Assembly (NCBI GenBank): GCA_963669175.1
Contig: OY769902.1
Span: forward strand, 2,848,001 to 2,912,000
Direction of reading: 5' to 3'
DNA: 64,000 bases
Source: a bacterium
GTDB taxonomy: Bacteria; Electryoneota; Electryoneia; Electryoneales; Electryoneaceae
The first letter of the stretch is position 1; each line of letters opens with the position of its first letter. Below the pieces are notes generated by a model. That model was not told the origin of the DNA. It saw only the letters and a list, made by a program, of their open reading frames with translations, and searched no databases. Positions 1,252 through 31,787 of the stretch are shown piece after piece. Both the position numbers and the translations under genes were made by a program.

Positions 1252-4200
1252 TTACTTCATCAGGATCAGCCTCGTAGTCTCGTTGATCGGGCCAGCCTGG
1301 AAGTTGAGGAAGTACATACCGCTTGCCAGGTTGCTGCCGTCAAAGGTCAACTGGTGGAAACCGGCTTGCATGGGTTGGTTGGCCAGGGTGGCAACCTTCT
1401 GACCCAGCAAGTTAAACACAGTGGCCTTTACGACCGCTGTTTCCGGCAAGCCGAATTTAACCCGTGCAATGGGATTAAACGGATTCGGATAGGCGCCATC
1501 AAAGCTGAATTCTGTCGGCAGGTCATTAGTGGGTTGATCTCCTAATCCCTTGCCGTCGTCAACAATCATGGTCACATCAACCCATTCCTGGTCTTCAGTG
1601 CAGGCGTTATGACTGATCTCGACCGCAACTGTGAATGTATCGGCCGGAAGACCATAGGAATGCAACCGGAGCTCAACCGTCTCCGTCTCACCAGCCGCTA
1701 CTGTGCCAGTTGGGTTCTGGATGCTGATCCAGTTGGAGTATGTGTCGATTTCCCACAAGTCAACCTTGTCAATATCACTGCTTTCCAGTATGCTGATATA
1801 TTGCCATACGGACGGATCCCACAGATAGGTAATATCACCGCCAGATGCAGTATAGCCATCATCACAAAGGAAAGTATGTACCGGACGCAGGTCGCCCGTG
1901 GTTGGGTTCATCTTGATGATATTGACTTCAGCTTCACCGCTCGCCTGGCCGATGAAGTAAACACTGTAGCCATCATCATCTTCCGGGAACCAACCGCCAC
2001 CACGAGGATAGAAAGTCTGGGTGAATTCATAAAGGATACCGGTGCTGTCGGGATTGATCACACGAATTTGAGTCCCGTAATCACCCACGTAGAAGTTGTA
2101 GGTATTCGGATCAAGGACAATATACCGTGCCGGGTTTGCAGGGATATCCCAGCTATCGACCGAAGTCCAACTGTCGCCGTCAAACTCCATCTGGTACATG
2201 ATACCATTATCCGCCGCATACAGGTATTCGCCATCCCAGGCCATGCCAAAGAATCCCTGGCTGCTGCGATCTGAAGCAGGTACCGGTTGATCAAATGTAG
2301 CGACATAGCTACCATTCTCATCGTACTGATACAACTTGTTCGGACCAGCGACATCATAATTGTCCGAACCACTTACCCAGAAAAATTCACCGTCGAAGAT
2401 CACACCATGATAGCGTGTCTCTATCGCGCTGAGCTCGAATTCACCAATAACATCCCAGTTCTCATCCAGTTCATTACCACTTCGAACTGGTCCACGGTTG
2501 CCATTATCGCCTCCGCTATTGAGCATTGCCTCATTTGGGAAATGGAGGCTTGCGTCGTAGTACAAGGGGCCGTTGCCATCGTTTGTGATGTCAAACTGCA
2601 TGACCATTTCTGAATCCGGAGGCGCTACAATGGACAGTTCTGTTGTGGACAAATCGAATTCGGGATGTGTGAGGCTGGCGCTGGCTTCAGTATTGGCGCC
2701 ATCTAACACCTCAACGCCATCAAGGGTCACCGGATTGTAACAGTCGGCTTCAATGACAAAATCATGTACACCGACAAACATGTCCTCAATAAGGTATTCA
2801 CCCTGCGCGTCTGTGACTCCGCTGAACAACCAGTTCGAAGTGTGAACGCAAGCGCCTTCGATCGGACTGTTGGTTTCCGAGTCGGTTACGGTTCCGTATA
2901 CACCACCGAACGGGATTGCGGTGTTCGTAGTAAACTTAATCGCGCGGCCTTCAGTAATCGCGGAAGAGCCAGGCGAGTATTCGTTCCAATACGCTACAAG
3001 CAAACCATCGGTCTGATCGCCGTTCTCGATCCCCGTGGTCCAGTAAGGCACGTCAAAGCTCATACCGCCAGAGGAATGATCGCATTCACCGTACTGGAAT
3101 ACGAACTCGTTATCACCGGTTCGTGTGGGATACATTTCTGTATCGTAGAAAATGACTTCAAAAGTGCTTTCGTATGAAGTATTATGATGCCGCATCTTGT
3201 AAAATTCGAAGATCATGCGGCCATCGTCTTCATCGTGGTAGTACAGGATTTTGCAATCGCCGTTTGTTTGCAGGTTATCCCAGTAAGGGGCAATCATGTC
3301 GTTCGGACCGCCTGGCGTAGGAATGCTCCAGTTACGGTTGTTGCAGATGCTGGGCTGCAAGCCCAGCGCCAGGAAGCCATTGGTGGTAATGGAGATATAG
3401 TCGAATGTCTGGCCGTAATAGGTAATCGGGAATCCATGAACCTCCAGGTTCAGCGTATCACCTTCATCGTCATCTTCTGAAAGGTCTTCAATATCAATCT
3501 CGATGCCTTCGAAGTCATAACCGTTTACGGCAGAATTGATCTCAACCCAATCAAAAGTTGGAGCGTATTCATAGTCAGTGTCGACATTTTCAAATCCCAT
3601 ATACCCGTAGTTGTCCGGGCCGATAGGATCTGTTGGGGCACGTTCACCGAATATGATGTTTGCATAAGCCGTATCAACCTGTCCCGTTTCAGTAGTCACG
3701 ACCAGCATGGTTTTTGCGCTGTAACCGGGGAAACCATCTTCAAGCGCCGCAACCGTGAATTCAGAGGTCACGTTTTCTTCGTTGATCTCGATTGCAGGAA
3801 CAGTGCCGGTTGGTTGAGTGACGCGCAACCAGGGATCCATGCTGACAAGCAGTGCTGTACCAGCGGCGCCATCGCTCAATCCGGCATTACCCAGGGTGAA
3901 TGCTACGTTTTGGACTGTACCGGGTTGAAGTTCGCCTGAAAAGGCTGCCTGTGTAACCACAAAGTTGGGGGCCGACAGTGACATCTCTATCCCGTCTGTC
4001 ACTGTTCCAGCAGATGTTTCAATAGTGAAATGTACCGGTACAATCCACCTGTCCTGAGCAGCGGGAGCGATCTCAACGATAATCAGCCCTGAGCCAAGAG
4101 AAGTCTGGTTCTGCTCGAGCGACGCCAGGGTGATTTCGCCAAAAGTATCTGTGATGTAAGGATCATCAATATCGCCTGTCACAGATATGTCAGTTAAGGT

Positions 4201-19947: not shown

Positions 19948-20132
19948 CAGATCGGTTCCCTGATTTTATGAAAGATGTAAACAACTCATGGTGAATGAAA
20001 ATACATCATTCAAAATGCAGAGGCCATACTTGAGGGGGATTCTTATTTTCAGGGATACTCATTCCGGTCCACTAGCCCGAAGATTTCACCACTGGCAATT
20101 TCAATGTGATACTTGATGGAACGGCCAGTACA

Positions 20133-20386
20133 AGAACCACGGCAGTGGTTCTCTGTATTAGCCCACCGTCCAGCGCCGTCTGTTTGGCGCTCACGGTGGG
20201 AATAGGATGTACGCTACTTGCCAACCCCGGCAGCGGGTTGCCTGAATATTTCCACTGTATACTTTTGATATTTATCAGGTTACTCCTTCCGGAGTAAATA
20301 TATGGTGCGCATTATCTCCCCGGGTAGCCGCCAAACTGACGGCGGCTGCCCGGGGCTAATACAGGTTGCCCCTGCCGGGGCGGTTG
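20133..20386. repeat. Repeat family D, multi-hairpin palindromic element
   Basis: Same architecture as 30028-30331; two long stems with AAAC(A/T)GAC loops in inverted orientation. Confidence 0.85.
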
Positions 20387-20595
20387 CCGATACTCAGCCT
20401 CATATTGCCAGCGAAACAGGGAATAGACACGCAAAGGGATACCGGAGCAAACTGTCCCCTGAAAAATGCTGTATGAATCAGTTGTAATGTGTTGATATGA
20501 AATGTGTTAAGATGATTATCCATGTTTCGTTCATGAAATATTCGGGCTAGGTGATCGTCTCGATGAACCAACAATCGCAAGGAATCCAGAGGAGG

Positions 20596-28171: not shown

Positions 28172-29617
28172 TCATGCGACTCGGTTGAAAGATGCGCCGC
28201 TTCGAGGGGGAAACTCGGCCAGTTTTTTCGTGGAAGGACGAGAAGAAGAGGTGGAATTGCTGTTGCGTCTATACGATTCAGCGGCTCGTTTTAATGGACC
28301 GTTTTCATCAAGTATCATTCCTGATTGCTGCATGGAATTTGCCTGGATGACGCCGTTACCCATTGCAGCCTGCCCAACGGAGCCGCCGTTCTGATTGCCT
28401 GACATGATCCCGTTTTGATTGCCCTGATCATCAGATGTTGCATGATTTTCATTCTCGCCAAAAGCATCAGCAGCCGGTGATTGCCTGTTATAGGATTCGA
28501 TGGGCGAGAACGGAGATGTGTCGTCCTGAACCCCCATGGCCGATGTGGGCTGCTCCGATGTGTCGCCTGGTTGAGGCTGCGAAGGCGCGGGATCTGTTAT
28601 CGCAAATGGATTGACATCAACTGGTGCGACTGCCGGATAGGTTGATTCTTCAGGTTGTTCTTCGGATTCTGACGGTGAAGTGATTCCATTCCGTGATGTA
28701 TCTTCTTCCGGTTCAGTCTTTTTAACTGCCGGATCTGCCTGTTCTGTCTGATCTGCGCCTGTTTGGCTTGTTTCTTCGGATTCCGTTGCTTGAGAAGCGC
28801 GTTCATCATTGATTTCTTTCTGGGCCTCGGTGGCGACCTGGCGGGCTTCGGCAGCAACTTTACGATCCTGCGCCGATGGTTCAGCGGGGGCAAGAGCCGC
28901 ACGTTCCGCCTGCTGGGCGTTTCGCATGCGTTCTTCCGGTTCATCGCCACCGCCGACACTAATACTGACATGGCCGCCTGTCGCGTACTGACGTCCGTCC
29001 GGACCCTTTTCATAATCATACTGTGCGCCGCCACTGGCTAGATGTCCGGCTGCGGCCAGGTGAGCCTGTTCATGCTGACGAACTTCCGTGTCACGCTTTT
29101 TCAGTTCCTCGACTTCTTTTGCTTCGTCCTTGGATAATTCCTGGCTGGTGGCTGGTGTTTTTGATGATCCCGATTTTTCCTCATCATCGCTTGAGGTTGT
29201 TTTATCTGTCTTCTCGTCTGACGTATTGTCTATTGGAGAAAGACTGACATCCGGTTCAGAGGATTGAGAATAGGAGTCGCTGATGGATGTCAACCCCGGT
29301 TGTGCTTCAGCCTGGTCGTCCTGTTGAGTCTGTTCAGGTTGGCTAATCAGGCTTGCAGCATCATCTTTCTCTTCGTCGTCGTTTTGTTGGTTGTTCAGTG
29401 CGCTTTGATACCGTTCATAGGCGCTGGAAGAGATGGAAGCGCTGTCCTGATAGCCGCAGCAATAGGGGGGATGCCCGCCACACTTGGGGCAAACTTCTTC
29501 ATCGTCGGGTATGGTCGAGATGGCGCGGTTCAGGAGCGGAGAAAGCCCAGCCTGGAATCCGGCGCTCCGGACTCCGGCGGACATACGTCCTGAAATAATC
29601 ATGGATTCGCTTGCCAT
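28172..29617 (-). CDS. SprA-related family protein with low-complexity flanks
   Basis: RDTEVRQHEQAHLAAAG...GPDGRQYATGGHVSI...AALAPAEPSAQDRKVA. Confidence 0.85.
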   Translation of the reverse strand: MASESMIISGRMSAGVRSAGFQAGLSPLLNRAISTIPDDEEVCPKCGGHPPYCCGYQDSASISSSAYERYQSALNNQQNDDEEKDDAASLISQPEQTQQDDQAEAQPGLTSISDSYSQSSEPDVSLSPIDNTSDEKTDKTTSSDDEEKSGSSKTPATSQELSKDEAKEVEELKKRDTEVRQHEQAHLAAAGHLASGGAQYDYEKGPDGRQYATGGHVSISVGGGDEPEERMRNAQQAERAALAPAEPSAQDRKVAAEARQVATEAQKEINDERASQATESEETSQTGADQTEQADPAVKKTEPEEDTSRNGITSPSESEEQPEESTYPAVAPVDVNPFAITDPAPSQPQPGDTSEQPTSAMGVQDDTSPFSPIESYNRQSPAADAFGENENHATSDDQGNQNGIMSGNQNGGSVGQAAMGNGVIQANSMQQSGMILDENGPLKRAAESYRRNSNSTSSSRPSTKKLAEFPPRSGASFNRVA

Positions 29618-29997
29618 CGTTCGCTCCGTTGACTTGTACCTCAAGCCACAACAACGAAACAGGTCGATGGTCACCCTCAATTATCCTATCGGCAAGATTA
29701 TCCATAAGCTTTACTATTTTATCGCATAGTGTGTTCTGCTATTTCCTCCGAAGTTGGTGCAGATGGTATTGTGTCTAGCGCAATTAGTGCAGTTGGTATC
29801 GTGTCTAACGTAATCTGAGGATGATTAGCCTGCTTTAGCAGGCTCCTCTTAGCACCCGGCTTTAGCCGGGTGGGTGATTCTATCCAAATGGAAGAGCGCG
29901 CTTCAGCGTGCTTTCACTTGTGATCCAAGTATGATTCTGGAAAGCACCCTGAAGGGCGCTTGGTAATGATTTGTTAGCTGTTCCCCCGGCTGAAGCC

Positions 29998-30393
29998 CTG
30001 TCTCTTGCTCACATCTTCGTGTTTCTGCCACCCCAGAGGGGGTGGTATATTTTAGCGTAGGGTAGACGCTGTCTGTTTAGCGTCTACCCTACGAAAAAGA
30101 TCAAACCTTATCTCAACCCTGGAAGGGTTGCATAACGTATAATTTACACCCAATTGATTTATAAAGGATATAAATTACGTTATTACCTGTAATAATTGAA
30201 TAAACTAATATTGACTGCTCATTATGCAACCCTTCCAGGGTTGATTGTTCGTTAGAAATCCTGACATAGTGTACAGGCCAAACAGACGGCCTGTACACTA
30301 TGCTAAAATAGGGAATCCCGCCGGGATTCTAAAAATGCGATGTCCACAATCCTTTTGCTGATAAAGCTTTCAGAGGATGTGGGTAAGAGACAG
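29998..30393. mobile_element. Non-autonomous IS4-family (IS50/Tn5-like) MITE, 396 bp
   Basis: Ends CTGTCTCTTGCTCACATCT and GGATGTGGGTAAGAGACAG; flanking duplication GGCTGAAGCC at 29988-29997 and 30394-30403. Confidence 0.85.
30028..30331. repeat. Repeat family D copy inside the MITE
   Basis: Perfect 15-bp stems at 30056-30093 and 30265-30302; TCAACCCTGGAAGGGTTGCATAA inverted pair. Confidence 0.85.
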
Positions 30394-30617
30394 GGCTGAA
30401 GCCGGGGGCTAAGAGGAGCAGGCTAAAGCCTGCTAAGAGAGTATGGTCTATTAAAACGCATTGACTCGACAGTTACGCCAATAAGGAGTGCCTACCGAGG
30501 TAAATCCAGTTGCCCATTCGAAATTGCGTGGACTTCAGAGAACTACTCAATATGTTGGTATTTTTTATTCTGTCATGTATGTTCGAGCATCGTTAGAATA
30601 CTACAAAAGGAGGAGCG

Positions 30618-31787
30618 ATGAGTCGCCCGCATACATACAAGGATAACAGCTTTAAACCAACATTATTCAACCAGATAGAAGAAGCAATCAAGGCCAGTAG
30701 TGACCCGGATGCGTTGATTGCTCTTCATGTCGGTGATACCTGGTTTGACCTTCCGAAAGAATTGAATCAGCCGTTGGAGTCGGAGCCCTGGAACGAACGT
30801 CTGTCCCGTTATGGCGCTACACAGGGGGAGATCGAACTCAGAAATCGGCTCTTTCAAAAGCTGACCACGAAAAATCAACTTCCGCTTTCCGGGCCACAGG
30901 AAGTTCAGCTTGTGTTCGGAGCGACCGGCGGTCTTTTCCTTACCATGAGCAAGCTGATGAATCCCGGCGATGAAATCCTGACCCTGGCGCCTTATTGGGC
31001 AATCCTCCGTGTGGTTGCATCGACTGCCGGGGTGAAACTGGTGGAAGTGCCGACTTTTGATCGTCTGCCTGATCCTTCAGATACACAGGCGATGGCGGAG
31101 ATGCTGGATACTTACCGAACCGATAAAACAGTAGCAGTATACTTCAACAGCCCGAATAATCCTTCCGGGGTACAGTTGAAACGTGGGCATCTGGAATCCA
31201 TCGCGGAATATGCTCAAAAGCATGATCTGTGGGTATTGTCCGATGAAGCCTACGAAGATTTCGTCTGGTCAGATGATCCCCATATTTCAATAGGTACGCT
31301 GGACGGCATGTATGAACGTACTGTTTCCATCTTTACCATGTCCAAATCGTATGCCGGAGCGGGATTACGGCTGGGTTGTGTCGCTGCGCCACAGGGGGTG
31401 ATTGCTGCGCTGAATCCATCTCATGTGGGGGTGGGGTATGAGCCGAACCGTCTGGCGCAGGTTCAGTGGATTCGTGGCCTGGAACGTAGCGAGGTGATTA
31501 TCAACAGCTTGAAGATCGCCTATCATGAAGGTTTGAGAGCTGTGGAAGAGAACTGCACGGTTCCTTACCTGGCGCCGGAAGGTTCCTTCTATGTATTCCT
31601 GGACTTGCGTGATCGATGGCAGGGATTGAGCGGTGACGAGAAACTAAAACGTATGCTCGATGCCGGTGTGGTGCTGTCCACAGGGGAAGCGTTCGGGAAT
31701 GATTACAACGGTTGGGCTCGCTTCTGCTACACCGCCGAACCGCCGGAACGTATCGCTGAAGCCGCACGAAGAGTTGCGAATTTGTAA
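30618..31787 (+). CDS. PLP-dependent class I/II aminotransferase
   Basis: NSPNNPSG, SDEAYE, SKSYAGAGLRLG; AGGAGG RBS. Confidence 0.92.
   Translation: MSRPHTYKDNSFKPTLFNQIEEAIKASSDPDALIALHVGDTWFDLPKELNQPLESEPWNERLSRYGATQGEIELRNRLFQKLTTKNQLPLSGPQEVQLVFGATGGLFLTMSKLMNPGDEILTLAPYWAILRVVASTAGVKLVEVPTFDRLPDPSDTQAMAEMLDTYRTDKTVAVYFNSPNNPSGVQLKRGHLESIAEYAQKHDLWVLSDEAYEDFVWSDDPHISIGTLDGMYERTVSIFTMSKSYAGAGLRLGCVAAPQGVIAALNPSHVGVGYEPNRLAQVQWIRGLERSEVIINSLKIAYHEGLRAVEENCTVPYLAPEGSFYVFLDLRDRWQGLSGDEKLKRMLDAGVVLSTGEAFGNDYNGWARFCYTAEPPERIAEAARRVANL

Follow-up and report, generated by a model that had tools for sequence, protein, structure and literature searches.

The 937-bp intergenic gap at positions 29681–30617 of the window (the whole 64,000-nucleotide stretch of DNA analyzed here) lies between two divergent genes and is filled with repeats. 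Within this gap, one hairpin of a palindromic repeat of about 206 bp is split by a gene-less insert of 396 bp (29998–30393), which raises the questions of what this insert is, how it reached the hairpin, and what it carries. The source genome consists of one contig of 5.447 Mb with 50% G+C and was scored 95.9% complete. The evidence described below makes it very probable that the insert is a non-autonomous MITE from the IS4 family (IS50/Tn5 subgroup) and that a recent burst left it as an orphan. The features of the locus are listed in Table 1.

Table 1. Features of the MITE locus and its surroundings (window positions)
Feature	Position	Strand	Remark
SprA-related gene	28172-29680	-	gap neighbour
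Host element, left and central part	29825..29997	.	REP-cluster/REPIN-like palindromic repeat of ~206 bp
A hairpin of host element	about 29828-29843	.	part of left half
C hairpin of host element	about 29853-29872	.	part of left half
Central hairpins of host element	29895-29915/29940-29960	.	inverted repeat
Left arm of split C' hairpin of host element	29983-29997	.	interrupted by MITE
Left copy of 10-bp target-site duplication, GGCTGAAGCC	29988..29997	.	exact repeat; metagenome joint 29987->30394
MITE, Tn5/IS50-type, 396 bp	29998..30393	+	44 genomic copies
Left terminal inverted repeat, 19 bp	29998..30016	+	17/19 to IS50 inside end (L094)
GC-rich hairpin followed by TATTTT, terminator-like (predicted), inward-facing	30026..30047	+	consensus scan
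Left D module: TATTTTAGC, hairpin with GTCTGTTTAG loop, then CAACCCTGGAAGGGTTG hairpin	30048..30135	+	
AT-rich centre between D modules	30136..30221	.	differs most between the two MITE subfamilies
Right D module, inverted	30222..30334	-	includes hairpin 30313-30329 followed by T-run on minus strand
Right terminal inverted repeat, 19 bp	30375..30393	-	16/19 to mosaic end, 14/19 to IS50 inside end
Right copy of 10-bp target-site duplication, GGCTGAAGCC	30394..30403	.	exact repeat of 29988-29997
Host element, right remainder: C' right arm, spacer, A' hairpin	30404..30436	.	inverted repeat and genomic matches
Class I/II aminotransferase gene	30618-31787	+	gap neighbour

The left terminus of the insert starts CTGTCTCTTGCTCACATCT, and its right terminus is the reverse complement of CTGTCTCTTACCCACATCC. 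Together they form terminal inverted repeats of 18/19 bp, in which 16 of 18 positions are alike (CTGTCTCTTGCTCACATC versus CTGTCTCTTACCCACATC), and this, along with the small size of the insert, is what characterizes a MITE. When the insert and one of the two duplicates were taken out, the hairpin CCCCCGGCTGAAGCCGGGGG was restored, which bears out the original prediction of a 396-bp insert that splits a REP hairpin. A degenerate pattern derived from the ends occurs twice in the window compared to 0.13 expected occurrences, and at least two occurrences were found in none of 100 shuffles.

As a natural IS50 reference we used the copy on the Tn5-bearing plasmid NC_009980.1 (L094, locus 285–1818). 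The left end of the MITE agrees with the inside end of this IS50 at 17 of 19 positions and with its outside end at 13 of 19, whereas the corresponding values for the right end are 14/19 and 13/19. Compared with the mosaic-end sequence given in Table 1 of PMC3347997, the left and the right end each showed 16/19 identities when counted by hand. The counts predicted earlier, 17/19 to the IS50 inside end on the left and 16/19 to the Tn5 mosaic end on the right, were thus reproduced, and the ends are IS50-like. The insert had also been predicted to lack a transposase, and the largest ORFs overlapping it indeed comprise only 42 and 61 aa.

As a single strand the MITE of the window was calculated to fold at −96 kcal/mol (z −16.6). 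A reading as an RNA gene was rejected, as no Rfam family reached its gathering score; the scan returned only weak hairpin-like matches to microRNA precursors, the best with 32.5 bits at a cut-off of 77. Promoter-like sites were not in excess (3 sites versus 2.1 in shuffles). A terminator consensus scan of positions 29600–30700 yielded six terminator-like sites compared to 0.8 in shuffles, and at each end of the MITE it predicted an inward-facing hairpin followed by a T-run.

The site is polymorphic for the insertion. One 1441-nt contig of the metagenome run X3 joins positions 29600–29987 to 30394–30700, with 406 bases absent, 10 letters shared at the joint, and flanks that otherwise differ by about 3%. 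This contig is an unoccupied site in a close relative, and it answers the concern raised with the original prediction that the insert might be an assembly artefact. In the short-read contigs of runs X1 and X2, presumably the source runs, the left junction is crossed by only 15 letters and the right one is not reached, so that no junction is bridged by 31 or more letters. Because these contigs break at the repeat, the filled state rests on the assembly and on the family-wide pattern described below. The depth of X1 over the MITE was about 33-fold that of the flanks, a sum of contig depths that does not represent a copy number.

The surroundings of the insert had been described as an outer family-C hairpin. 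A split hairpin is present, but it is not merely a 20-nt hairpin; it belongs to the palindromic repeat of about 206 bp, here called the host element. Its outer parts form a 43-nt inverted repeat with 86% identity (29825–29867/30394–30436), and without the insert (29825–29997 plus 30404–30436) it folds at −124 kcal/mol. The genome contains at least 76 matches of at least 120 bp to the host element, at 73–84% identity. Intact CCCGGCTNNAGCCGGG hairpins are present 72 times, in 67 cases outside long reading frames, as is typical of a many-copy, mostly extragenic repeat. At another locus (L095), a gene for a 155-aa Y1 transposase is bracketed on both sides by inverted A, C, and third hairpin modules. 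Because the two halves of the host element flank this Y1 gene in inverted orientation, the host element is, judged from this arrangement, a gene-less, REPIN-like form of an IS200-type (Y1) transposase unit. All three Y1 proteins tested matched the NCBIfam IS200/IS605 transposase model with 56–70 bits (cut-off 55). With the NCBIfam model REP_Tyr_transpos, one of the three scored 21 bits (cut-off 80) and the other two gave no match, placing none of them in the RAYT clade. Since the proteins score as IS200/IS605 transposases and not with the RAYT model, we term the arrangement of repeats and Y1 genes RAYT-like, on sequence grounds, and claim no RAYT membership. Just upstream of the host element, at 29749–29808, we observed two tandem 30-bp units that are 80% alike.

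A search of the whole genome revealed 44 full copies of the MITE, of which 42 have a length of 395–398 bp, while the other two, at 870 and 1717 bp, are longer through nested inserts. A truncated copy with 90% identity is located at genome positions 1392844–1393018. The duplication had been predicted to comprise 10 bp, or 8 bp if the ends are read as CCTG. Perfect 10-bp duplications flank 36 of the 44 copies, as expected for an element with a duplication of fixed length; many of them are non-palindromic and the bases preceding them differ. Therefore, the duplication is 10 bp and not 8 bp long, and the ends are CTG rather than CCTG. Five of the eight copies without a perfect duplication (at 271929, 1183775, 1750582, 2144036, and 3926219) have two flanks of the GGCTNNAGCC type with different central bases, and in one of the five the flanks are mutually reverse complementary. 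Such mismatched flanks would be the trace expected of recombination between MITE copies, leading to inversions or exchanges.

The short copies fall into two subfamilies that are about 89% alike, one with 29 copies (median identity 99.5%) and one with 13 copies (98.4%), and 13 copies of the MITE are identical. The copy in the window is a clean recombinant, with about 155 bp on the left from subfamily 1 and the rest from subfamily 2. For solo ends at genome positions 140818, 518137, 1393018, and 2154945 we found no convincing partner ends; one of them belongs to the truncated copy, and the others are remnants or related elements. The remnant at 517742–518137 has an end, CTGACTCTTACACACATC, that is nearer to the IS50 outside end, and it contains a D doublet (see below) with 76% identity to that of the MITE; a partner end was not found for it.

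Other mobile elements were observed within MITE copies. A further family of MITEs, 469 bp long and with ends starting CCGAATATTTCA, is represented in the window at about 20077–20546 (genome 2868077–2868546) and, for example, at genome positions 847912–848380; 71 BLAST matches included at least 25 full-length copies with 96–100% identity. The same GTCTGTTTGG loop recurs in its hairpins, and one of its members sits in the D-hairpin loop of the 870-bp copy. At genome positions 4494613–4496329, an IS of 1312 bp (413-aa PF01609 transposase, ends CAGAACTGTCCGG, 9-bp duplication) has inserted into a MITE copy, at the tip of its CAACCCTGGAAGGGTTG hairpin, resulting in four nesting layers.

In the interior of the MITE, two D modules form a palindromic doublet that encloses an AT-rich centre. 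The arms of the doublet are 80% identical at 30048–30091/30267–30310 and 100% identical at 30113–30135/30222–30244, in line with the original prediction that the cargo is mostly a family-D element. Each D module consists of TATTTTAGC and two hairpins, one with a GTCTGTTT loop and one of the form CAACCC..GGGTTG. In the entire genome, 88 of the 92 D modules lie inside MITE copies. The remaining four comprise two upstream of a Y1 transposase gene (L096) and one each in the truncated copy and in the remnant that ends at 518137. Beside the L096 gene, modules related to D were seen on the upstream side only. As 88 of 92 modules sit within MITE copies, the MITE is the vehicle of the D repeat, and the suggestion that it spreads a structured repeat proved well founded. 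Just upstream of a 151-aa Y1 gene, at genome positions 2671400–2671960, we also observed long arrays of tandem repeats of about 20 bp between two D modules.

Elements with the same type of ends but with a transposase gene exist outside the source genome. A scan for the end pattern, performed with one genome per species, recovered at least 76 stretches, which sets a lower bound for the taxonomic spread and is not a survey. Among the matches listed was a full-length element of 1557 bp in a Chloroflexia MAG (L073, positions 2001–3557) whose ends are identical to the right end of the window MITE at 18 of 18 and 16 of 18 positions. It encodes a 482-aa protein that matches PF14706, PF02281, and PF01609 as well as Tn5 transposase structures (E value 3e-41) and contains the Y-2-R-3-E-6-K signature; the duplication of this element is 9 bp. 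A frameshifted relative (L086) was also among the matches listed. The first 18 bases of the window right end are identical to ends of the L073 and L086 elements, and the homology stops after about 20 bp, as would be expected if only the ends are needed.

Closer relatives were found within the same taxonomic family. A genome of a sister genus (G009) contains two full-length copies of 1476 bp with CTGTCTTTTAGTCACATC-type ends and a 10-bp duplication, and another genome (G003) contains one full-length element whose end abuts GGCTTCAGCC. The transposases of both share 39% identity with the IS50 enzyme and 41% with that of ISEc13. MITE-type ends were present in 6 of the 15 other genomes of the family, mostly as ends of MITEs of 232–389 bp, and in none of the 25 genomes searched from other families of the phylum. 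Related ends and related transposases thus both occur in related genomes, and with 44 copies at home and like-ended elements elsewhere whose transposases have all three Tn5 domains (L073, G009, and G003), the earlier assignment as a non-autonomous IS4 element could be substantiated. A departure from classical IS50 is also visible: the duplications of the MITE and of the G009 element are 10 bp long and not 9 bp, as they are for classical IS50.

The source genome itself gave a different result. The search proposed for ends, further copies, and a cognate transposase succeeded for the ends and copies, but no cognate IS4/Tn5-type transposase was found in this genome. Searches with PF02281 and PF14706 gave no match at an E value of 1 or below, the L073 transposase, used as query in a protein search, matched nothing at 10 or below, and the best E value in a tblastn search with five Tn5-type transposases was 0.09. 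Four resident PF01609 IS types (1304, 1312, 1523, and about 1465 bp) were considered as partners and rejected, their ends being unrelated to those of the MITE. Because no Tn5-type transposase was found in the source genome, the MITE family is most likely orphaned, unless its partner resides on an unassembled replicon. Two exact mosaic-type ends 125 bp apart in a Xanthomonas arboricola scaffold (L029, 1981–2105) were set aside; this pair has no target duplication and is likely a library-adapter remnant rather than a transposon.

The 44 copies allowed us to reconstruct the empty sites, whose consensus is ccc-GGCTwwAGCC-ggg. C-type hairpins were the target of 21 copies, A-type hairpins (GCAGGCTNNAGCCTGC) of 3, and E-type hairpins (beside CGCGCTATTC) of 6, so that 30 of the 44 copies lie in three repeat-hairpin families and 14 in other targets; a preference for REP hairpins, as predicted from the single copy, is apparent in the whole family. 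At 28 of the 44 sites, at least six of eight base pairs around the centre are complementary, compared to 0.5% of 100000 random positions. Since 14 targets lie outside the named hairpin families and five sites have three or fewer of eight complementary pairs, the hairpin preference is strong but not absolute. In none of the 44 copies do both flanks lie within a stop-to-stop frame of 150 codons or more. Outside long frames, 67 intact C-type sites remain beside 21 MITE copies (21 of 88 sites occupied if all 21 count), 41 intact A-type sites beside 3 copies, and 54 other intact GGCTNNAGCC sites beside none, which means that the 10-bp core alone is insufficient as a target; this occupancy comparison may be biased, since insertions in genes could be selected against and the repeat copies are not independent of each other. 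A similar target geometry was seen elsewhere: Ktedonobacter, haloarchaeal, and Calditrichota loci among the matches listed have 10-bp duplications between GC-rich complementary arms, and in three loci (L012, L016, and L088) the duplicated 10 bp are non-palindromic and still lie between such arms. Perfect 10-bp duplications flank 8 of the 16 end pairs listed outside the source genome.

These data bear on whether the transposase recognizes a sequence or a structure. In the latter case it would read an extruded hairpin or cruciform, or a single-stranded hairpin at replication forks, and REP tips would be struck as they fold. Such a reading would explain why the palindromy of the targets is far above background, why in L012, L016, and L088 the duplication is exactly the loop between the complementary GC arms even where it is not palindromic, and why three unrelated hairpin families were targeted in the source genome. 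On the other hand, A-type hairpins have 7-bp stems like those of the C type and are nevertheless occupied about threefold less (3 beside 41 versus 21 beside 67), the arms show a base preference, with a C-rich 5′ side and a G-rich 3′ side, and 5 of the 44 sites have little dyad symmetry. Moreover, judging from the Tn5 mechanism, a 10-bp duplication would need staggered attacks on a duplex and would be hard to fit to the tip of a cruciform. As the core is insufficient and hairpins with equal stems differ threefold in occupancy, we favour an extended sequence target over structure, and we consider structural recognition a possible but rather unlikely explanation.

With respect to the origin and the present state of the family, three further explanations were weighed against that of an orphaned Tn5-type MITE. 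The MITEs might still be mobile, either by means of a transposase encoded on a plasmid or phage outside the one-contig assembly or through cross-mobilization by a resident PF01609 IS. This would agree with the 13 identical copies and with a site that is polymorphic between close strains, and a genome that is 95.9% complete in one contig leaves room for extra replicons; however, none of the four resident IS types has ends related to those of the MITE, and no Tn5-type match was found in the chromosome, and we regard continued mobility as unlikely. A multiplication of the copies by a Y1 transposase of the IS200/RAYT type, via the D modules or via a host element with the MITE inside, appears highly improbable to us. 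The D modules do resemble the upstream flank of one Y1 gene, the host element corresponds to the joined flanks of another, and two pairs of MITE copies have host elements that are 93–95% identical. Yet the copies are bounded exactly by Tn5-type ends and 10-bp duplications, whereas Y1 transposases of the IS200/IS605 family are not known to make target duplications. Because host elements of that subfamily without a MITE are equally similar (93–95%), joint movement is not needed to explain the shared flanks, and the mobilization of host element and MITE as a composite found no support. Finally, the breaking of the X1 and X2 short-read contigs at the repeat would be compatible with an assembly artefact, and the similarity of the ends to those of IS50 could be due to chance, but we have practically no doubt that neither applies, given that the family has 44 copies in different surroundings with duplications that match, that the site is empty in a related strain, where precisely 406 bases are absent, and that none of the 100 shuffles reached the number of end matches in the window.

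For the orphaned Tn5-type MITE, we infer by analogy with Tn5 a cut-and-paste mechanism in which a Tn5-type DDE transposase supplied in trans would bind both ends of about 19 bp, excise the MITE, and paste it into a double-stranded target with a stagger of 10 bp, giving rise to the 10-bp duplication. Recognition would depend on sequence rather than structure, the preferred target probably being an extended GC-armed palindrome of approximately CCC-N-[10 bp, A/T-rich centre]-N-GGG. The tips of REP-type hairpins provide the main supply of such palindromes in the source genome. The cargo, a hairpin doublet of a second Y1-associated repeat family, would have been multiplied only as a passenger. A recent burst would then have been followed by the loss of the parent, which probably disappeared or was resident on another replicon.

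IS50/Tn5 is one of the closest known systems. It shares with the MITE ends of about 19 bp (17/19 for the inside end, 16/19 for the mosaic end), and the full-length relatives of the MITE encode transposases with the Tn5 domains. Unlike IS50, the MITE is gene-less, causes a 10-bp rather than a 9-bp duplication, and strongly prefers palindromes with GC arms. Tn5 targeting has been described as nearly random (PMC6201506), and for its sites PMC1525189 notes only a tendency towards palindromes, with G/C pairs where the duplication begins and ends. ISEc13, a member of the IS4 family (IS50 subgroup) from Escherichia, has a transposase 41% identical to that of the G009 element, and its ends, which start with CTGTCTCTT, correspond to those of IS50 (L099, 298–1861); the single L099 copy differs by a 9-bp duplication (8/9 matching) and by a site with no obvious hairpin.

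Insertion specifically into REP elements is a feature that the MITE has in common with ISRm22, IS1397, ISKpn1, IS621, and ISPpu9/10. Five IS families are listed as targeting REPs in PMC1525189, and all copies of ISRm22, an IS4-family element of Sinorhizobium meliloti, are located in REPs according to this source (its table gives 10/10, its text nine). Targeting of REPs within the IS4 family had therefore already been published for ISRm22 in PMC1525189, and the points of interest here are the 10-bp stagger and the extended target. ISRm22, which we compared by description only, and the other REP-targeting IS are autonomous, whereas the MITE is gene-less and without a partner, has 44 copies, and carries a REP-type cargo. 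Host element and cargo are palindromic hairpin doublets related to the flanks of Y1 genes and in this respect resemble REPINs or BIMEs with their RAYT, a concept outlined in PMC3116915 and PMC3337134. They differ in that the Y1 proteins score as IS200/IS605 transposases and in that the D doublet occurs almost only inside a Tn5-type MITE. A non-exhaustive literature search, which included a word search of the MITE review PMC10969869, brought up no description of an IS50-derived MITE with a REP cargo.

For annotation, the MITE explains a 937-bp gap filled with repeats and provides a rule for 44 sites in the genome. The locus also points to a natural relative of Tn5 whose target is a strict, extended palindrome and whose stagger measures 10 bp; as Tn5 serves as a near-random tool, natural target selectivity among Tn5-type enzymes is of practical interest. 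It is possible, though rather unlikely, that a Tn5-type clade with nearly the same 18-bp ends and a 10-bp stagger extends across Calditrichota, Chloroflexota, and haloarchaea, homes to the tips of GC-armed hairpins, and parasitizes Y1-driven REP/REPIN populations, in which case a cargo of REP doublets would gain DDE-driven spread within and between genomes. The orphan state of the family, as seen from 13 identical copies in a genome where no transposase was found, dates the burst as recent and places the loss after it. The locus is a clear if not very unusual example of selfish DNA that has settled within other selfish DNA, in which three parties are related to each other: repeats of the Y1 type serve as landing pads, a MITE of the DDE type lands in them, and a second repeat of the Y1 type rides inside.
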